A stretch of 64,000 bases of DNA. It comes from Escherichia phage vB_EcoM_CRJP21. Positions 119-59,886 of the stretch are shown here, piece after piece. The notes below the pieces were generated by a model. It was not told where the DNA came from and ran no database searches. It saw only the letters and a program-made list of their open reading frames with translations. Location of the stretch: sequence record OQ708376.1; one strand, given 5' to 3'. The stretch's first letter is position 1; every line of letters starts with the position of its first letter. The position numbers were made by a program, and so were the translations under genes.

Positions 119-454
<336 letters not shown>

Positions 455-455
455 A

Positions 456-638
456 ATGACACACGAAGAATGGATGTCCAAACAGCATAAAGAACATGAC
501 TGCTTTGGGAATGGCATTCGTCAGGTACATTATGATATATTAAGAGATGAAAATCTTTTCAGGTCATATGTTTTGGATACCAGAAAACCCTGGTTTATAT
601 GCGAACTGGCATTTAGAAAGTCAAATAATCAAAACTAA
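456..638 (+). CDS. small hypothetical protein, MTHEEWM family
   Basis: N-terminus MTHEEWM shared with 1127..1291 and 1288..1452; start trimmed from track ORF 438. Confidence 0.45.
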   Translation: MTHEEWMSKQHKEHDCFGNGIRQVHYDILRDENLFRSYVLDTRKPWFICELAFRKSNNQN

Positions 639-654
639 ACAAGGAATACAAAAA

Positions 655-873
655 ATGGAAACAACTTTATTAGAAGTTATTCAATCATTAAAACCTGAAG
701 ATGAGGTTCAAGTACTACTACATGGTTATCGTGTAAAAGGTACTGTGGTTTTAGTCAATGATACAACATTGGTTATTACAGAAACAAACCCATATGATAG
801 TAATCAACTTGCCAATATCCATATCGATATCACTGGAATTATTGGTGTCGGTGTATCTAAAACACTTGCATAA
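655..873 (+). CDS. hypothetical protein
   Basis: track ORF 547..873 trimmed to internal ATG with aaggaa SD. Confidence 0.4.
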   Translation: METTLLEVIQSLKPEDEVQVLLHGYRVKGTVVLVNDTTLVITETNPYDSNQLANIHIDITGIIGVGVSKTLA

Positions 874-906
874 ATCATTAATTCATTATATAATGGGACA
901 TAACAT

Positions 907-1022
<116 letters not shown>

Positions 1023-1026
1023 AATA

Positions 1027-1103
1027 CGGGGTATAGCACAATTGGATAGTGCAAGAGAATTCTAATCTCTAGGTTGGGGGTTCAAGTCCCTCTACCTCGG
1101 CCA
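1027..1103 (+). tRNA. tRNA-Arg (anticodon TCT)
   Basis: acceptor cggggta/tacctcg, T-arm ggggg-ttcaagt-ccctc, anticodon loop attctaa, CCA. Confidence 0.7.
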
Positions 1104-1126
1104 ATTTTAATTAAAGGTTAAAAACC

Positions 1127-1453
<327 letters not shown>

Positions 1454-1461
1454 AAAAAAAG

Positions 1462-1875
<414 letters not shown>

Positions 1876-1935
1876 CTAAATAATTCAGTACTGAGGATAT
1901 TAATATGTTTAAAGATGAACGTCCAGATTTGTAAA

Positions 1936-2066
<131 letters not shown>

Positions 2067-2069
2067 TAC

Positions 2070-2229
<160 letters not shown>

Positions 2230-2244
2230 CAATGCGAGGTATAA

Positions 2245-2502
<258 letters not shown>

Positions 2503-2510
2503 GAATTTAA

Positions 2511-2912
2511 ATGAAAAAGAATGACTTGATCAAAATGCTTCAAGAAATTGACGGCAATCCAGAGATTGTTATTTGGAATGGATACGTCGATGATTATATG
2601 AACATCGAAAAAGGCTTGACTAAAATCACTCTAGTCAAAGAAACCGAACAGTTTCTTCAGGGTGCATTAGAGCACGAATGGTGTGAACGTAACAATACAT
2701 TCGACATTCCAGAAGACCAACGAACCAAGATTGCAGAACGTGCTAAAGAACTGCATAAGAAACGCGAATACGATTTCCAGAACCCATATGTCACTGAAGA
2801 CGAATTCAATCGCTGGTACGGTAAAAAGAAATTGACAAAGTATGTCCTTTCACCTAAACTACGTGGTAAGACTTCACTTGGTGTATTCAACGCCGCAGAC
2901 TTAAACTACTAG
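2511..2912 (+). CDS. hypothetical protein (133 aa)
   Basis: ORF tiling with neighbours. Confidence 0.6.
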   Translation: MKKNDLIKMLQEIDGNPEIVIWNGYVDDYMNIEKGLTKITLVKETEQFLQGALEHEWCERNNTFDIPEDQRTKIAERAKELHKKREYDFQNPYVTEDEFNRWYGKKKLTKYVLSPKLRGKTSLGVFNAADLNY

Positions 2913-2921
2913 CGGGTATTA

Positions 2922-3286
<365 letters not shown>

Positions 3287-3287
3287 T

Positions 3288-3325
<38 letters not shown>

Positions 3326-3344
3326 AGAGGTACTTCGAGTATGC

Positions 3345-3471
<127 letters not shown>

Positions 3472-3531
3472 TACAACCGACAATGACGAAAGAACAGTTA
3501 TCAACATTTATCAACGCAGCATTAGATAAAA

Positions 3532-3563
<32 letters not shown>

Positions 3564-3615
3564 TACCAAGCAGCTTGAAGAACTTTGTAGTGCTGCACCT
3601 ATGCCGACTCTTGGC

Positions 3616-3716
<101 letters not shown>

Positions 3717-3728
3717 TATCTTACTTCT

Positions 3729-3818
<90 letters not shown>

Positions 3819-9137: not shown

Positions 9138-10292
9138 TTATGCGTTGTAACCAACTATTACGACTGAGCAGTCAAGCGGTTCTACTACTTTAAGAATTAC
9201 ATTATCATCTTCATCCACTTGTATTTCACTATGAACTACATGATTGTCTGAAGAATATAATTGAACTTGTGGTAGTGCTTTACCATGTTCAGTTACTGGA
9301 ACTGAGATAGAGTACATAGAGTCTTCACCGAGAACCCACTCACTTAAAGTATATTCTTTATGGAAAGGAGTAGTATGCAGTGTTTTTCCGATTATACTCA
9401 AAGAAACAGGTAAATTATCAGTTTGATACACAGTAATATTACCTTCTGCGTCTACAGAAAGATCTACACCAACTTGATATAAGTCACCACTGTATGCTTG
9501 AAGTGCTAAGTACTGTCCACGATCATGAACATCAAATGGAACAACCGCAGAAAATACACCTTCCGAAACAGGTTCAAATTGGGATAGAAGAACTGATGTA
9601 ACAAAATCAATATCCTCACCACTTTCAAGAACATCAAATTCCACCACTTTAGTGTTATAATATGGAGAAGTGAGCGTAGCAGTACCTTTCCCTGATTGTG
9701 TGATAACATCAACTGGAATTGTAAATGCATCATTAACAAATTGGGTAGTAAAGTATTCTGTCCCGTCTGGTAATACGATTGTTATTACCATACCGTTAGT
9801 ATCAATTTCTGAACCAGTGTTGAATAATTTACCACTAATTGAGTCATTACCAACAAATACTGGTGAAATGAGAATATTATCTATATCACGATCTATAATA
9901 CCACATTCAGGTGTATACATATGATACAAGGTTTGTGAACTACCTAAAATTGTTTTATGTAGCATAAATTTATATACAAATCCAGTATCAGTTTCTTGTG
10001 GCTCTTCAGAATATCCACGAACAAAGAAACAATTTTTATTAATTTCACTTAATAGTTGGTCATTAGTTTTATTGTAATTTAATAGATAACCTTTATTATC
10101 TTTAGTTGTTATTTGTACTTTACGATATATTATATTAGTTCTTGGATCAACTAAATCATATAATCTATGGCTTCTTTGGCGATAGATTCTAATATTTTTT
10201 AGTCTAGTTCCATCGTTGAGGATTGCACCATCAACAACATAACCACATTCACCAAACTTATAGCGTCCAGCCGCAGCAATTGACCTTGACAT
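9138..10292 (-). CDS. hypothetical protein (384 aa), beta-rich, possibly structural
   Basis: long minus-strand ORF, SD ggaggg upstream of start. Confidence 0.7.
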   Translation of the reverse strand: MSRSIAAAGRYKFGECGYVVDGAILNDGTRLKNIRIYRQRSHRLYDLVDPRTNIIYRKVQITTKDNKGYLLNYNKTNDQLLSEINKNCFFVRGYSEEPQETDTGFVYKFMLHKTILGSSQTLYHMYTPECGIIDRDIDNILISPVFVGNDSISGKLFNTGSEIDTNGMVITIVLPDGTEYFTTQFVNDAFTIPVDVITQSGKGTATLTSPYYNTKVVEFDVLESGEDIDFVTSVLLSQFEPVSEGVFSAVVPFDVHDRGQYLALQAYSGDLYQVGVDLSVDAEGNITVYQTDNLPVSLSIIGKTLHTTPFHKEYTLSEWVLGEDSMYSISVPVTEHGKALPQVQLYSSDNHVVHSEIQVDEDDNVILKVVEPLDCSVVIVGYNA

Positions 10293-51412: not shown

Positions 51413-52522
51413 TTATTTTGGTAAATCAATTTTAGTAAAGACTGCAACATCCTCGATTGCACCTGGAATGGCGTAATACGATCCAGTACTATACACATCT
51501 CCATTTTTGGTTAATATCGATGTCAAACCATCACTAAAAAGAACATCCCTAATCTCACTAACTTCAACGGGTAATTGTAAATTGGTAGCACTATATATAG
51601 CACCAGTTTGAGAATTGTTTAATCCCAAACCACGGTTCGCCCCAACACCCTTCTGATATGTACTAGTAATTACCATTTGTGTAGCAGTATTTAAGGCAGG
51701 TGAATTCGTCATAAACAACGGAGAACTATTAGGCAAAGTACTTAAAGGAACTGCACGGAATGTAGTCGTACCTGAACTAAGAAAGTTTGGAGTTTGACCA
51801 CATACGAAATATGATGTACCATTATAGTAATTTAATGCATTACCACCAATGGCTGCATCGATTACACCAGAACTACGCAATCCCCAAGTGTTAATTTGTG
51901 TTTGGTTCCCCGTACCATGCTGCCCACTACTATTCCATCCAGAACTATATAGCTTATTATCTAATGTAAGATACATACTATCATTCGCATTGGTCATTAC
52001 TTTACGAACGTTCGTAGCACATTGAGTTAATGTGTAAATTGATGATGAACCAATACCCAAAGAACCACGATATCCATTATCTCCTGCACCATAGAGTACT
52101 GAATTAGTGCTAAGTACAAATATTAAACCATTTGTGCATACAATATTAGCAATTTCACTGACTGGTATAGCATTGGTAAACCAACTAGTCCTTTCAACTA
52201 ATACAGTACTGTAAGAAGTAGTTGTAGAAGATGAGAACCAGTACGTTTGACCTGATGTCCATATAGTATTATCATTTTTAATAATAACAAGTGTACGATC
52301 ACCCACGAAAAAATTAGAAACATCTGCACTTACTAATGTCCACGAAGACACCGTGTTGGTATTACCATTTCCAGATTCACCACCTTGATTTCTACCTATG
52401 TAATATAAATCATGTGAATCAGTCAATAAGAATTGACCTTGTGTAGAAGCACCAACTTTAATTATTTTTTTAGGACCAGGGACAATATTTCCATACCTAA
52501 TTATTCTTCCAAAAGGTAACAT
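51413..52522 (-). CDS. RCC1-like repeat protein, paralog 8
   Basis: MLPFGRIIRY leader; start trimmed. Confidence 0.7.
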   Translation of the reverse strand: MLPFGRIIRYGNIVPGPKKIIKVGASTQGQFLLTDSHDLYYIGRNQGGESGNGNTNTVSSWTLVSADVSNFFVGDRTLVIIKNDNTIWTSGQTYWFSSSTTTSYSTVLVERTSWFTNAIPVSEIANIVCTNGLIFVLSTNSVLYGAGDNGYRGSLGIGSSSIYTLTQCATNVRKVMTNANDSMYLTLDNKLYSSGWNSSGQHGTGNQTQINTWGLRSSGVIDAAIGGNALNYYNGTSYFVCGQTPNFLSSGTTTFRAVPLSTLPNSSPLFMTNSPALNTATQMVITSTYQKGVGANRGLGLNNSQTGAIYSATNLQLPVEVSEIRDVLFSDGLTSILTKNGDVYSTGSYYAIPGAIEDVAVFTKIDLPK

Positions 52523-52530
52523 ATTCCCTC

Positions 52531-53733
52531 CTATTGTTGCCATAACTGCGTTGGCATTAATGTTAGTGTAGTAATACTATAAGTGCCATCTGGCAATCTA
52601 CCACCATTTCCATTCCAGCCACCACATGCATATAATTTATAATCTTTAGTAATTATTATGGTTCTGCTCCAATCTTTAGATGCCATAAGAACATTTTCAT
52701 AACCACCACTTATTGCACTAAGATTAAAAATATTCCAAGTTCTAACTAATGTATTAGTTCCATTACCTTCTTGACCATATGAGTTAGCACCACTACTTCT
52801 AACATATGGTGCGTATTGTGCCATAGGTGCACCAATTGATGCATTTCCCATATTACTTGGACAAATAAAAGTACTGTACTTACTTACATCAACCGTGACC
52901 GATGTGTTCCTAATTGGTGTTAGCTGATTTACCGATGTAGTCGTACCATTACCCGCTTGTCCAGTACTGTTAGCCCCGCTATAATATACAGACCCACCAG
53001 TAGTAAACCACCAAGTAACATCGTATGTAGTACTAATATGTTCTACATTACTAATCACGAATTTGTTCAAATATACAACAGAACTACCACCACATCCACT
53101 TTCACCAAAGTTATCCTTACCACAAAACCATGCATCTTTATTTGATTTGATATAGTGCGTTCCTTGTAATGAACATGCCATATGTGTAACTTCACCCATA
53201 TTAGTCATAACTGTGAGTGTAGGGATGGAATTTTTATTACCAGAGCCACATTCACCATTGGTATTTCTTCCACACGCAATTACTCTACCATCGGTTAATA
53301 ATATTCTAGTACTTTCACCTATATATACACTCTTGATCATATTAGCCATAACACCTATTTTATTAAATGCAACAGTAACATCAGTCCATGTTGTCAAATA
53401 ACCATTAACAGGTGTTGCATCTCCATAATCAGAAAATGCAGCCACAGACCCAGTGTAGTATATTTTATTATCCAAATCAATCATCAACGAACCTTGAACA
53501 CCAAGCCAAAAGGCTGCACAGTTCCTTGCAAGTACTGTAAATGACGAAACTGCTGCTGAATTCCCAAGACCAAATTGATACATGTTATTACTACCATAAC
53601 CATATAAAGTATTAGTTGGGTTATGTAGATACATACAGTTTGTATAATGTTGTTGTAAAACATCTGAGAACTCTACAGGTTCTGGACCTGGTGCAATATT
53701 TGCGTACTTAACCATTCTTCCAAAAGGTAACAT
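52531..53733 (-). CDS. RCC1-like repeat protein, paralog 9
   Basis: MLPFGRMVKY leader. Confidence 0.7.
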   Translation of the reverse strand: MLPFGRMVKYANIAPGPEPVEFSDVLQQHYTNCMYLHNPTNTLYGYGSNNMYQFGLGNSAAVSSFTVLARNCAAFWLGVQGSLMIDLDNKIYYTGSVAAFSDYGDATPVNGYLTTWTDVTVAFNKIGVMANMIKSVYIGESTRILLTDGRVIACGRNTNGECGSGNKNSIPTLTVMTNMGEVTHMACSLQGTHYIKSNKDAWFCGKDNFGESGCGGSSVVYLNKFVISNVEHISTTYDVTWWFTTGGSVYYSGANSTGQAGNGTTTSVNQLTPIRNTSVTVDVSKYSTFICPSNMGNASIGAPMAQYAPYVRSSGANSYGQEGNGTNTLVRTWNIFNLSAISGGYENVLMASKDWSRTIIITKDYKLYACGGWNGNGGRLPDGTYSITTLTLMPTQLWQQ

Positions 53734-56344: not shown

Positions 56345-56527
56345 ATGCACAAAGAATACTACACACAATTTCTCCCCAGCATTTTTGAACACTACGCCAG
56401 ATATAAAGTCCCTATGGATAACGATTTGGCAGTACTGGGATTCAATAACTGCATAGAACGAAGTATAGAAAATAGTAGTAGTTATGACCAGCTATATAAC
56501 ACTATCCTACTTATATTCAGGTACTAA
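56345..56527 (+). CDS. small protein, KEFY family
   Basis: MHKEYY...ILLIFRY. Confidence 0.6.
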   Translation: MHKEYYTQFLPSIFEHYARYKVPMDNDLAVLGFNNCIERSIENSSSYDQLYNTILLIFRY

Positions 56528-56528
56528 C

Positions 56529-56717
56529 ATGCATAAAGAATACTACACAAAACATTTCCCAATGTACCTCAGAACTAATCTATTAGATAAACCTCGCGGT
56601 ATCAATGCACAAAACGATAAAGTGTACTTTACTATGTGCACTAAAGCATGTATACTAGATTTTGACAGCTATCATCGAGTACTGTATCATACCCTGTACC
56701 TAGCTTTCGTATTCTAA
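56529..56717 (+). CDS. small protein, KEFY family
   Basis: MHKEYY...; trimmed from track ORF 56484. Confidence 0.6.
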   Translation: MHKEYYTKHFPMYLRTNLLDKPRGINAQNDKVYFTMCTKACILDFDSYHRVLYHTLYLAFVF

Positions 56718-56726
56718 GAGAACAAT

Positions 56727-56912
56727 ATGCATAAAGAATTCTACTTAAGCCATCTCGATCTAAACTCCCAAATGCTTATACCACAAATCCCAATAGATAT
56801 CAAGGATAAGAAAAATACCGAACAATTCATTTACCATACACAGTGTGCGATCACCCCAAATTACATTCCATATGAATTGTACTACATTCTCGCCCTAATA
56901 TATAGGTACTAA
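56727..56912 (+). CDS. small protein, KEFY family
   Basis: MHKEFY...LALIYRY. Confidence 0.6.
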   Translation: MHKEFYLSHLDLNSQMLIPQIPIDIKDKKNTEQFIYHTQCAITPNYIPYELYYILALIYRY

Positions 56913-56913
56913 T

Positions 56914-57099
56914 ATGCATAGAGAATACTACACACAATTTGTTAAAGGGAACTACAAACATGCCGTACCCAGAACCCCTTTAAATTTTCATGACCCAAGT
57001 ACTATATTCTTGTTCCATGACGCAATACGTACAGTACTCAATACTAAAGATGAAGATGTGCAGTACGTATTCTTACTATTACTTATATACAGACACTAA
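56914..57099 (+). CDS. small protein, KEFY family
   Basis: MHREYY...LLLIYRH. Confidence 0.6.
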   Translation: MHREYYTQFVKGNYKHAVPRTPLNFHDPSTIFLFHDAIRTVLNTKDEDVQYVFLLLLIYRH

Positions 57100-57104
57100 C
57101 TAAT

Positions 57105-57314
57105 ATGAATAAAGAACATAAAGAATTCTACTCCAAATACATAAGCCCCTCAGAACAAATGTTTCTAAGGACTACTCCACCTTTAAGTACTAATACATTT
57201 TTCGGCAGAGTATGCTACAATAATTGTATTCAAATGACTTTAAACGCAAACGAAGATGGTAACAGTACTAACCTGTACTCAGGTATCATAGGTATACTAT
57301 TCCTGTATGAATAA
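57105..57314 (+). CDS. small protein, KEFY family
   Basis: MNKEHKEFY... Confidence 0.6.
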   Translation: MNKEHKEFYSKYISPSEQMFLRTTPPLSTNTFFGRVCYNNCIQMTLNANEDGNSTNLYSGIIGILFLYE

Positions 57315-57495
57315 TTACAAAGACTTCTATTTGAATACACTACCTACTGTACTTTCTCTAAGTGCTCAATGTAAAATCCCGCTGGATAATGCTTACGCCA
57401 GATATAGCTATTCCATAACTGTTAATCGATGTATAGAGAATCATTGCAGTACTAACCAGTACTATAACATAATCCTACTTATATTCAGGTACTAA
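57307..57495 (+). CDS. small protein, KEFY family
   Basis: MNNYKDFY...ILLIFRY. Confidence 0.6.
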   Translation: MNNYKDFYLNTLPTVLSLSAQCKIPLDNAYARYSYSITVNRCIENHCSTNQYYNIILLIFRY

Positions 57496-57496
57496 T

Positions 57497-57679
57497 ATGA
57501 ATAAAGAACATAAAGAATTCTATATACGAAAACTAACATTCGTCCCCGTAAGAATATATAAAGAATGCGACCCAAGATTATACCTATGGCACTTCAATGA
57601 GTGCATAAAAGATTCTATATACCCTAAGAACTACAAAGAACAATTGTGCTCAGTACTAACACTAGTACTATCATATTAA
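57497..57679 (+). CDS. small protein, KEFY family
   Basis: MNKEHKEFY... Confidence 0.6.
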   Translation: MNKEHKEFYIRKLTFVPVRIYKECDPRLYLWHFNECIKDSIYPKNYKEQLCSVLTLVLSY

Positions 57680-57694
57680 TTAATAGAGAATACT

Positions 57695-57886
57695 ATGTAT
57701 AAAAACTTCTATATAAGTAAACTAAAAGAAAATGAACAAGTATGGATTAGATCTATAATAGTACTGGCATTTAATAGATATGCATTTAACAGATGTACCG
57801 AGATTGCTATAGACCCTTATAATATTAAAGAGAATGTACAGTATAATCAGTACTACTATATCTTAATGCTTATATATAGGAAGTAA
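57695..57886 (+). CDS. small protein, KEFY family
   Basis: MYKNFY...LMLIYRK. Confidence 0.6.
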   Translation: MYKNFYISKLKENEQVWIRSIIVLAFNRYAFNRCTEIAIDPYNIKENVQYNQYYYILMLIYRK

Positions 57887-58514
57887 TTAAACACAAGTAG
57901 ACAGGGGAAGCTCCTAGTGAACAACCTTTATGTACAGGCGAATTGTTAAAATTCAGCCTGGACAAATGCGATCACTAGGATTCTCCCCAGGCTAAACCCC
58001 GTAATCATAGGTAGTCATAAGTAATCATATATAAACATTTATATGAGCACCGTAGAATCACAGAATGATTATATATGATTCAGTACTGATTAGTATAGAC
58101 AAGAATTCTCAAGAATGCACGGGAAGGATTCAGTACTGATATGCCACTAAGTAGGCAGAGGAAGTCTGCCGTACTTTGTAGTTTCCAAGCTCCTTTTCCA
58201 TTTTTCAAATTACATCAAATGTAATCAAAAGTAATCACGCAATGATTAGTACTGAATTATTACTTTCACCTTAATTACAATTACCCTTTTACCCTTCGGG
58301 GTAAAATTCAATTACCCCTTGAGGCTCCAGCAAAAAGTTGGTTAGTACTCCATCCTAAATCTCGATCCTAAAAATTTTGGAGTACCTATGAAATAAAAGT
58401 TGGATCTTCGAAAGTTGAAATTTACGTTGGGACGTTTATGATTTGTGGGATATAATGATGTTTGTAGACGGGTAGTTCTCAAGAATATCAGTACTGAAAG
58501 ATGAAAGAAAGTTA

Positions 58515-58542
58515 TTGACTTTATGATTCAGTACTGTATAAT
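58515..58542 (+). promoter_or_regulatory. orphan sigma70-like promoter in ORF-poor region
   Basis: ttgact-N16-tataat; no credible ORF within about 1 kb downstream. Confidence 0.5.
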
Positions 58543-58869
58543 GTTCTACATAGGGTGATGAGTTGCTGCGAACAATTCATTTACTCTACCTCCTGTCGTG
58601 AGACAGTACAGAAAAGATAGTTCCTCCTGTGGTGGTACATCTTTTTGAACCTCATATGAAAATCGTAATAACAGTACTGATATTAACAGAATGGTGTCAG
58701 TACTGATTTTAATCTAAAGCATTATGCCACCAGCACAAGCTGGTGGATTCCCTCTAACAGTATTCAGTACTACATGATGGTCTTCATCCTCCTAGGGTAA
58801 CATAGTGAGGGCTATGATGGCAGTACTGAATACTCCCTTTCAAAAGATAGATCTATGGTATAGTACTGA

Positions 58870-59060
58870 CGGATTTTGGGCGTAGTTACCCTGGATGGAT
58901 TTTGGGCGTAGATATGTCTAGCCCTCCAGAAGTCTGGAAGTAAAGATGGCTATCCATCTAGACGGCTAAACGGCTAGATTTCTGGATGGCTGGATGGCTA
59001 GACGTTTGGACGGCTAAACGGCTAGATGGTTACACGTCTGGAAGTATAGACGGCTAAATC
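58870..59060. repeat. iteron-like short direct repeats
   Basis: GATTTTGGGCGTAG at 58872 and 58889 (variant at 59221); GACGGCTAAACGGCTAGAT at 58961 and 59009; GGATGGCT x2; GACGGCTAAA x3. Confidence 0.6.
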
Positions 59061-59683
59061 AAAATTTTATTTTGTTTTTTCCAATAGTTCCCCTACCGCG
59101 TGGGGATAGTTTCCCCGCAGTATCTGGTGTTAGATTTTTCTGAATCTGGAATCATTATCTTATAAACTGGGGGCAATGTCAACGGCCTGGCCGGATATTT
59201 TTAAAAATTTTTTCAGTACTGAATTTTGGGCGTAACTATGCACCCGGTGGGCTTGAGTCTTTCTCGACTTGATGGAACTATTATACAGTACTGGAAAAAT
59301 AAAGCAATACCCTGGAAGCAAAAAAGTTTTAATTAATTTGCTTGCTATCCTGGGCCGGACTATGGTACTATATTTCAGTACTGAGAAAGTGCGTTTACCT
59401 GCTAGGGTGCGGGAGTGTATCCTTTTTTTATATCTTGAATTTTGGACGGATCTTCCCACCCCCTGGGGTATCCGCTTTCTCGCGTCTATGTAGTAATTAT
59501 ACGCTTTTTCAGGATCAAGTCAATACCTAAAAACAAAATAATTGAAAATAATTTAACGCGTTTAAACGGCCTGTAAAGCCCTGGAATGATTGGAATGGTG
59601 CAAATGTATAGCTTATGTGTATTAATGCGTTAGAATGCGTCTGAGGACGTTTTACGGGGTATAGGGATGATTTAGTGGATTGA

Positions 59684-59772
59684 TTCAGTACTGAATAATA
59701 GTACTCCTATATAGAAAGATAGTTCCCCTGGATGATTGCAGTACTGAATAATAGTACTCCTATATAGAAAGA
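59684..59772. repeat. two copies of a ~35-bp direct repeat
   Basis: tcagtactgaataatagtactcctatatagaaaga at about 59686 and about 59737. Confidence 0.6.
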
Positions 59773-59802
59773 AAACTATTTTAAAAGTATTTGTAGAAAG
59801 TA

Positions 59803-59865
59803 CTTGCACCGTACTGATAAAAGCGTATAATGTTTTACATCGAGAGCGGGAACACTTCCCGCTAC
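59803..59865 (+). promoter_or_regulatory. early promoter plus 5'-UTR stem-loop module
   Basis: acttgcac...tataat then hairpin agcggga-acac-ttcccgct. Confidence 0.55.
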
Positions 59866-59886
59866 ACATTAAGAGAGATTAAAACG

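Follow-up and report, generated by a model that had tools for sequence, protein, structure and literature searches.

A non-coding stretch of an Asteriusvirus jumbo coliphage spans the start of the terminal repeat and carries a long array of predicted MetJ boxes

Introduction

What does a phage genome do with almost 2 kb of DNA that is poor in open reading frames (ORFs) and crowded with short repeats? The question is raised by positions 57887–59886 of a 64,000-nucleotide stretch of Escherichia phage vB_EcoM_CRJP21 (OQ708376.1), hereafter the window, in whose coordinates all positions are given unless another genome is named. A preliminary description of this sequence had proposed that the repeats are iterons and that the region is either a candidate replication origin or a regulatory hub. 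Our analysis leads us to think it probable that the region is instead the junction between the unique arm and the direct terminal repeat (DTR) of the genome and a terminal control region, in which a predicted array of binding sites for the host repressor MetJ acts in cis, rather than a set of iterons for a replication initiator. The second of the two original terms is thus a fair one for what is a conserved, cis-acting, non-coding control region. The location at the genome end is itself already published for relatives of this phage; the content of the leader is the part that appears new.

Results

The only long non-coding stretch of the window

A megablast search with 57700–60000 matched 43 phage records and identifies the window as part of an Asteriusvirus jumbo coliphage. 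The 31 records that cover at least 80% of the query, at 89–99% identity, are Asteriusvirus jumbo coliphages or close Salmonella relatives (PBECO4, 121Q, phAPEC6, G17, fEgEco12). When ATG-initiated ORFs of at least 50 aa on either strand are considered, 57887–59271 is the sole stretch of more than 500 bp in the window that is left uncovered, and the non-coding stretch runs on to 59886 because the ATG at 59830 sits inside a –10 box, so that the real start of the first gene is the ATG at 59887, behind a ribosome-binding site. This bears out the earlier remark that the ~1.9-kb ORF-poor region is the only long one of its kind here. The most carefully annotated relatives, G17 and phAPEC6, have no gene annotated in the homologous ~1.9 kb. 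In phAPEC6, ph0011, EJP2 and CMSTMSU, frameshifts or stops interrupt a 99-aa GTG-start ORF on the minus strand (59160–59459) that some records annotate, and it was rejected. No conserved ORF was found in the leader and no tRNA or tmRNA gene in 57887–59886, and a scan of 55–64 kb against Rfam found nothing at E values of up to 1.

The physical left end of the genome

The lead to the genome end came from a distant blastn search with the region, which matched the very start of many records of phages with DTRs. For one relative, fEgEco12, the ends were determined by PhageTerm and restriction digests, giving a linear genome of 374,733 bp with DTRs of 20,993 bp (PMC13070987). Base 1 of fEgEco12 aligns to position 58150 of the window (AGTAGGCAGAGGAAGTCTGCC), and the start of its right repeat (353741) carries the same sequence as its position 1. 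Position 58150 is the exact start of the first 400 nt in fEgEco12, vB_Ec-M-J, ELP-22, E9.1 and BF17, and of the reverse-complemented end of G17; six independent linear records thus begin or end at this base. The annotated DTR of vB_Ec-M-J is 1–21525, the terminal redundancy of G17 is ~20 kb as judged from read coverage, and the region is held twice in records of 368–384 kb. Virion DNA is shown, by exact homology to mapped relatives, to begin at 58150, which would make this base both the physical left end and the start of the DTR. The same homology places 57890–58149 as the tail of the unique right arm, and 58150–59886 a 1.74-kb untranslated leader of the ~21-kb repeat. Across 8 Asteriusviruses identity is 0.69–0.70 at 58050–58149, 0.86 from 58150 and mostly ~0.9 or above further right, a step in conservation that fits a terminal-repeat boundary. 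The ~1.9-kb 'empty' region in dozens of deposited genomes, which several records fill with spurious hypothetical genes, is now explained. The features of the boundary are as follows.

57890–58149, no strand: last ~260 bp of the unique right arm, non-coding and strain-variable (identity drop left of 58150)
57898–57920 and 57972–57994, no strand: inverted repeat in the right-arm tail (repeat search)
58150–58170, plus strand: left end, the first DTR bases (AGTAGGCAGAGGAAGTCTGCC), with the terminal hairpin GGCAGAggaagTCTGCC (ends of six relatives)
58150–59886, no strand: 1.74-kb non-coding leader upstream of the first gene (no conserved ORF, no Rfam match)
58350–58450, no strand: best-conserved leader block among Asteriusviruses, 96–98% (identity profile)

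The right-arm tail also holds two CAGTACTG palindromes (58081 and 58131), and fEgEco12 has an insertion just left of its genome end. Inside the end, the pentamer AAGTC lies 13–17 nt from the left terminus in Asteriusvirus (58162–58166), Serratia phage BF and Klebsiella phage Muenster. This placement in three genera suggests a conserved cutting geometry, and AAGTC may be a terminase recognition motif. The block at 58350–58450, which includes the motif CCTAAAAATTTTGGAGTACC also present in fENko-Kae01 and BF, is a further candidate for recognition by terminase. The other boundary of the repeat, on the right, falls beyond the window, in a short intergenic gap of an ordinary kind; in fEgEco12 an inverted GAAGTCGC stands 3–10 nt outside it (L005 positions 1997–2004) and is a further possible terminase recognition motif.

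The repeats form one contiguous array that matches the MetJ matrix

The pieces that had been taken for iterons belong to a single contiguous array of 8-nt units, in which GACGGCTAAACGGCTAGAT (58961 and 59009) and GGATGGCT (58984 and 58992) each occur twice. The array and its AT-rich surroundings comprise:

58928–59055, no strand: 16 contiguous 8-bp units, AGACGGCT, GGATGGCT, AGACGTTT and similar (repeat and matrix scan)
59056–59082, no strand: AT-rich, AT-only tract adjoining the array (sequence)
59195–59214, no strand: AT-only palindrome (sequence)

The unit resembles the MetJ met box (AGACGTCT), and we scanned for such boxes with the matrix that Augustus and Spicer published in 2011, at their thresholds (PMC3228920). 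In the whole 64 kb the sole run is 58944–59055, with 14 tandem boxes and 102.8 bits. As a control, the same scan of 7.5 kb of E. coli K-12 metJBLF returned exactly two runs of 4 boxes, scoring 31.2 and 24.9 bits, which are the known operators of metJ/metB and metF; the phage array is thus 3–4 times longer than either control operator at comparable per-box scores. In 300 shuffles of the local 4 kb the longest run was 4 boxes, against the 14 observed. In base composition, 96 in-phase boxes taken from six phages agree with the published matrix (r = 0.90), while none of the other seven phases gives more than 0.03. Among Asteriusviruses the length of the array steps by whole units (120, 128, 136 or 144 nt). 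The gene for the putative reader, metJ, is annotated in E. coli K-12. TrpR (CTAG at a spacing of 8 bp), considered as an alternative reader, was set aside as the MetJ matrix fits in phase. Together these data indicate that the 'iterons' look like 14–16 tandem predicted binding sites for the host repressor MetJ.

The array recurs at genome ends of three phage families and shares its slot with Fur-like boxes

The array is present in 85–95 phage records from three groups, namely Rak2-like jumbo phages (Asteriusvirus, Eneladusvirus, CBB, GAP32, XbC2), T5-like Demerecviridae (phages of Vibrio, Aeromonas and Providencia) and T7-like Autographiviridae (phiKT, PGT2, KPV811). The matrix counts 28 boxes in AhSzq-1, 15 in Pontus, 15 in fEgEco12, 9 in PGT2 and 9 or more in Yen9-04. 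The array is always within or beside the terminal repeat: it lies 650–920 bp from the left end in five jumbo lineages (Asteriusvirus, BF, pEa_SNUABM, XbC2 and CBB), 38–109 bp from the end, and at both genome ends, in PGT2, and at 9624–9691 of the left terminal repeat in Providencia phage PR1. A scan of IMG/VR with four-box patterns found near-consensus arrays in L031, L032 and L034 (e.g. GGACGTCT AAACGTCT) and one 120-kb contig with a 34-box array; about half of the 83 four-box matches were (GGAT)n-type microsatellites and were set aside. MetJ is limited to Enterobacterales, Pasteurellales, Vibrionales, Aeromonadales and Alteromonadales, and the hosts of 94 of the 95 array-bearing records fall in MetJ-bearing orders, the exception being that of XbC2.

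Two Klebsiella phages with PhageTerm-defined repeats, Muenster and fENko-Kae01, have clusters of Fur-box-like sequences at the position of the array. Counting as Fur-like any match of at least 13/19 to the Fur box GATAATGATAATCATTATC, Muenster has 13 (clustered at 787–900 and 1073–1100) and fENko-Kae01 has 11 (711–800), compared with about 1 in shuffles. Phage T5 (AY587007) has a similar cluster of 5 matches at 9470–9640, where shuffles give 0.4. The order in T5 is DnaA boxes, then the Fur-like cluster, then the direct repeats D (DRD) and A (DRA); in the T5-like phages Pontus and AhSzq-1 it is DnaA boxes, met-box array, then DRD-like repeats. In the literature searched we found no report that links met boxes or MetJ to phages or phage ends, and the T5 preprint mentions neither Fur nor MetJ. 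The content of the leader, a long met-box array common to jumbo myoviruses, T5-like siphoviruses and T7-like podoviruses, was not found described in that literature.

Other repeats, promoters and hairpins of the leader

The remaining elements of the leader are listed from left to right.

58515–58542, plus strand: sigma-70 early promoter TTGACT-16-TATAAT, 11/12 consensus positions, with CAGTACTG in the spacer (promoter scan)
58549–58712, plus strand: predicted short structured non-coding transcript with terminator-like hairpins (RNA fold z = –4.1; terminator scan)
58727–58746, no strand: perfect hairpin of two inverted Chi octamers, CCACCAGC-ACAA-GCTGGTGG (motif scan)
58872–58910, plus strand: two GATTTTGGGCGTA repeats (repeat search)
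59085–59124, no strand: conserved block with a covarying hairpin at 59102–59116 (GGGGA-TAGTT-TCCCC) and flanks CCGCG and GCAGTATC (comparison of relatives)
59154–59182, minus strand: leftward sigma-70 promoter TTGACA-17-GATAAT, which faces the array and, beyond it, the genome end (promoter scan; conserved in fENko)
59281–59309, minus strand: weaker leftward promoter-like site TTGCTT-16-TATAAT, unit B (promoter scan)
59365–59490, no strand: imperfect palindrome of ~125 bp (RNA fold z = –4.6)
59496–59523, minus strand: leftward sigma-70 promoter TTGACT-16-TATAAT (conserved in BF, Yen9-04, pEa_SNUABM_47 and fENko)
59676–59719 and 59729–59772, plus strand: tandem duplication of a 44-nt element, 91% identical, each copy with CAGTACTGAATAAT (repeat search)
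59804–59863, plus strand: early promoter of the first gene, TTGCAC-16-TATAAT (59804–59831), and 5′ stem-loop (59845–59863) (sequence; like layout at 60264–60324)

Most of what had been noted among these elements before holds on recounting. [quoted passage not shown] The clustered direct repeats are real too, with slightly corrected copy counts, the 13-mer GATTTTGGGCGTA occurring exactly twice (58872 and 58898) and the 12-mer ATTTTGGGCGTA three times (the third at 59223). The GATTTTGGGCGTA repeats resemble DRA of T5 (GATTTTGGGGAAG) and similar motifs in Pontus and AhSzq-1. The density of CAGTACTG palindromes is indeed high, since 12 of the 54 copies in the window fall in 58081–59739, where ~1.3 are expected from the rest of the window. 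The duplication reported as a 35-bp element at about 59686 and 59737 exists, but its size and place are those listed above (44 nt, at 59676 and 59729). Conservation dips to 0.67 over 59676–59772, consistent with strain indel variation.

CAGTACTG also stands in the spacer of many strong sigma-70 promoters (TTGACT-N8-TCAGTACTG-TATAATG), e.g. at 1477, 1955, 18452, 33353, 58529 and 62575, which suggests that it is linked to promoters and recognised by a factor of the phage or the host. AGTACT is present in 232 copies in the 64 kb, where base composition predicts ~22.

Downstream of the 58515 promoter, the predicted transcript contains a hairpin at 58672–58705 followed by ATTTTAATCT, which is terminator-like. 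The Chi hairpin, one of the sites of the 3 + 1 Chi octamers in the whole window, has been retained with exact octamers by 9 of 11 Asteriusviruses and by fENko-Kae01, whereas other hairpins of the leader covary instead. Its loop (58735–58738) reads ACAA or the complement TTGT depending on the strain (homologous in G17, phAPEC6, fEgEco12 and 121Q), as if the tip were inverted. The hairpin at 59102–59116 is of the covarying kind, as BF, Yen9-04, fENko and Muenster have the same flanks with differing but still complementary stems; the minus-strand RNA of the 59085–59124 block folds with z = –3.0.

The palindrome at 59365–59490 is the non-coding block best conserved across genera (RaK2, K64-1, Muenster, BF and fENko). 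A leftward promoter lies on its right flank, and a possible rightward promoter and a terminator-like hairpin (59404–59423) at its left end. Its counterpart in relatives has a Fur-box-like sequence at the centre, which the window does not. An RNA family built for this leftward unit was dropped, because the consensus was weak (8 pairs, little covariation) and 2 of 7 sequences were the wrong paralogue. Unit B is paralogous to the unit at 62860–63000 (74% identity over 93 nt, E = 2e-9). Further leftward sigma-70 units lie within the terminal repeat, antisense to early genes, at 61428–61456 and 62860–63000 (both minus strand). The promoter at 61456 matches 12/12 consensus positions, and the unit at 62995, the paralogue of 59309, ends in a terminator-like hairpin at 62866–62885. 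The units at 61456 and 62995 may encode small antisense RNAs.

Neighbouring genes

The leader is followed by a gene of the terminal repeat:

59887–60249, plus strand: g01, first gene of the terminal repeat, 120 aa, function unknown (phrog_7352, E = 1e-57; no Pfam match)

Its counterpart is fEgEco12 g01 at 1689–2108, and a shorter form is annotated in phAPEC6 and 121Q. Early genes in the repeat have a promoter of their own (GTACTTGCA-N16-TATAATGTTTTACAT), then a GC-rich 5′ stem-loop (59845–59863, 60306–60324) before the ribosome-binding site. For nine flanking proteins the only matches are to PHROGs of unknown function, to one DUF and, below threshold, to one Pfam entry; no initiator or DNA-binding gene is recognisable among them. 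Directly before the genome end, paralogous small ORFs of ~60 aa stand in tandem on the plus strand (56345–57886). Three tested members of this family match phrog_11711, and several carry a CAGTACTAACCAGTACT-like motif near the 3′ end. Seven tRNA genes (Gly, two Ser, Arg, Met, Asn, Thr) cluster at the left edge of the window (141–3808).

Discussion

A probable cis-acting control region at the genome end

The sites of the leader, at the level of sequence, succeed each other from the end inwards, with sigma-70 promoters in both directions from 365 bp, the Chi pair at 580 bp and the met boxes at 780–905 bp. If each is used as its sequence suggests, terminase would cut concatemers between 58149 and 58150, with the conserved AAGTC 13 nt inside the end. 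After entry, the Chi pair would tame RecBCD loading at the end, which is the natural reading of such a pair 580 bp from a double-strand end, and host RNA polymerase would engage the leader promoters first. MetJ, with its corepressor S-adenosylmethionine (SAM), would polymerise cooperatively along the array and coat a long segment with protein, which would act in cis at the end of the genome. Such a segment could brake or anchor the incoming DNA at the inner repeat boundary, or mark a site for packaging, and would do the job for which T5-like phages have Fur-box-like arrays and DnaA boxes placed in their injection-stop region (Repeat Region 3). Should entry start with the right genome end, the array would follow ~20 kb behind it, at the inner repeat boundary, mirroring T5. 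A role in cis is favoured because the distance from the end is conserved across genera, and because the identity of the boxes swaps between sister phages while the slot is kept. Most likely the region is comparable to the injection-stop region of T5; the role given here to the array is an inference.

Several observations weigh against this proposal. We place the end at 58150 in the window phage from relatives that are 96–99% identical to it, and we know of no report of two-step injection for these jumbo phages. Natural MetJ operators have 2–5 boxes and overlap promoters, whereas the array at 58928–59055 has 14–16 boxes and overlaps neither promoter nor gene; on its sequence it is operator-like, yet not an operator of the met regulon. 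Position 6 of the box is G rather than T in half of the phage boxes and in 10% of real met boxes, so that MetJ might bind weakly, or some other protein, possibly one of the phage, might be the reader. XbC2 (OP292654.1) carries the array at 648–768, ~650 bp from its PhageTerm-defined end, and is reported only on Xanthomonas vesicatoria, a genus without MetJ; either the array needs no MetJ or the phage has an enterobacterium as its natural host. Termination could be the sole role of the Chi hairpin, which the authors of G17 annotated as a terminator. Finally, the leader of the window has neither DnaA nor Fur boxes, which makes the likeness to T5 Repeat Region 3 one of architecture and not module by module.

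A wider form of the proposal is that at least three unrelated virulent phage families have long arrays of host-repressor operators within the terminal repeat, close to the genome end (MetJ boxes in the window, Fur-like ones in T5 and Klebsiella jumbo phages, DnaA boxes in T5-like phages), and let the cooperative DNA-binding proteins of the host brake or anchor the entering DNA, that the T5 stop signal is a host-repressor roadblock, and that Asteriusviruses inject in two steps, the 21-kb repeat first, with a pause set by the SAM or iron status of the host. We regard this generalisation as rather doubtful. If host repressors do load on the arrays, these offer a concrete and cheap test of T5-type injection arrest, which would also show phages to be borrowing host transcription factors as structural parts of genome-end biology.

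Alternative explanations

The same layout could be a packaging signal, with the array and the conserved blocks read by the terminase small subunit or another phage protein, rather than MetJ, to position the cut at 58150. In every family the arrays lie less than 1 kb from the terminase cut site, AAGTC stands at +13–17 from the end in three genera, the 58350–58450 block is 96–98% conserved, and pac and cos sites typically contain short repeated motifs. However, the same 8-mer serves three unrelated families whose terminases are unrelated, the right repeat boundary has no comparable array, and the replacement of the array by Fur-box-like arrays at the same slot in sister phages points to host proteins rather than to a co-evolving phage protein. 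We therefore hold a packaging signal to be unlikely.

The array might instead act in trans, as a decoy by which replicated phage DNA soaks up MetJ and derepresses host methionine and SAM synthesis for the benefit of the phage. Each repeat has 14–34 boxes and each genome two repeats, so that with many genome copies the number of sites would be large, and titration by multicopy operators works for Fur (the FURTA assay) and for DnaA (datA). A decoy has no need of a boundary position, yet this position is conserved within about 250 bp across genera, and a single incoming genome cannot titrate a repressor early in infection. Host derepression would also be pointless for T5, and probably for its array-bearing relatives, because T5 destroys host DNA within minutes. 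A decoy function is accordingly improbable.

The origin first proposed for the region, in which the repeats bind an initiator or a promoter transcript forms an R-loop at the AT-rich tract and primes DNA synthesis, has in its favour direct repeats beside AT-only tracts (59056–59082, 59195–59214), promoters in both directions, a minimum of the cumulative GC skew near 58 kb, and the precedent of T7, whose secondary origins are linked to promoters at its left end. Against this, the units of the array are 8 bp long, contiguous and MetJ-matching, not spaced iterons of 12–22 bp; DnaA boxes are absent from 57890–59886; and the region coincides exactly with the physical genome end. The initiator gene that was to be sought nearby did not emerge, as none of the flanking proteins has a recognisable function, initiator or other. 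The change in GC skew is confounded by a switch of gene strand: nine consecutive minus-strand ORFs of ~300–430 aa (42712–53733), the only minus-strand block in this part of the window, account for the negative skew from 42 kb on. The skew is negative at 54–58 kb too, although the small ORFs there are on the plus strand. T5-like phages carry the same arrays in their terminal repeats, and the T5 preprint puts the T5 origins near mid-genome. An iteron-containing origin is thus unsupported, and we give an origin of any kind here little credence.

That the region is a cluster of small non-coding RNA genes (the 58515 transcript and the leftward promoter units) with incidental DNA repeats is very improbable, for although the predicted transcripts are strongly structured (z = –4.1, –3.0 and –4.6), the leftward promoters are conserved across genera and the promoter-plus-terminator units at 59309 and 62995 are paralogous, there is no Rfam match, the best-conserved unit lacks a convincing consensus structure or covariation, and the met-box array and its link to genome ends in other families would be left unexplained.

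Comparison with known systems

With iteron-type origins (the Rep/iteron origins of plasmids, and T4 oriE, named in the preliminary description) the region shares clustered direct repeats beside AT-rich DNA and a promoter. It differs in that its units are 8 bp, contiguous and repressor-operator-like, that it has no adjacent initiator gene or DnaA boxes, and that it sits at the genome terminus.

The MetJ operators of E. coli (metJ/metB, metF, metA and others) likewise consist of 8-bp boxes of the AGACGTCT type that adjoin each other, and under the PMC3228920 matrix they agree with the array in phase and in the score of each box. Here the differences are the number of boxes (14–16 compared with 4 in each control), the lack of overlap with a promoter or methionine gene, and the G at position 6 in half of the boxes.

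Chi protects linear DNA from RecBCD in E. coli. The leader has exact GCTGGTGG octamers in both orientations 580 bp from a double-strand end, as such protection would use, although in the window they form a single hairpin that is a possible terminator, and their protective role is a predicted one.

The left end of T7 consists of a 160-bp terminal repeat, short repeat arrays, the leftward promoter A0 and the rightward promoters A1–A3. In common with it the window has a non-coding leader at the physical left end, repeat arrays, and host-polymerase promoters that are first to enter, one of them pointing endward. The repeat units are different, and in place of the 160-bp repeat there is a repeat of ~21 kb with a leader of 1.74 kb; T7-like PGT2, in turn, shares the 8-mer array of the window, 38–109 bp from its end.

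The closest comparison is with Repeat Region 3 of T5, a candidate injection stop signal that reaches 270 bp past the repeat boundary; the shear point of first-step transfer is calculated to be at 9618 (T5 preprint). The Fur-like cluster of T5 at 9470–9640 spans this point. Both regions are untranslated, repeat-rich and highly conserved stretches of 1.2–1.9 kb in a long direct terminal repeat, both extend past the junction of the repeat with unique DNA (by ~260 bp in the window and 270 bp in T5), both contain arrays of host-protein-like boxes, and the GATTTTGGG repeats of the window have a counterpart in the DRA of T5. The window lacks the DRD of T5 (GTGCAAATCCGAC) and the nick site, has none of the paired inverted DnaA boxes found in Pontus, AhSzq-1 and T5, and, on maps drawn in the usual orientation, has its region at the other end of the repeat. 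In the T5-like phages of Vibrio, Aeromonas and Providencia it is the 8-mer array of the window that occupies the Repeat Region 3 slot. The leader of the jumbo phages and the region of T5 thus appear to be built alike, and the region would be a variant of the T5-type terminal control region, with a very long MetJ-type array and a Chi pair, of which the array is common across families and exchangeable with Fur-like arrays.

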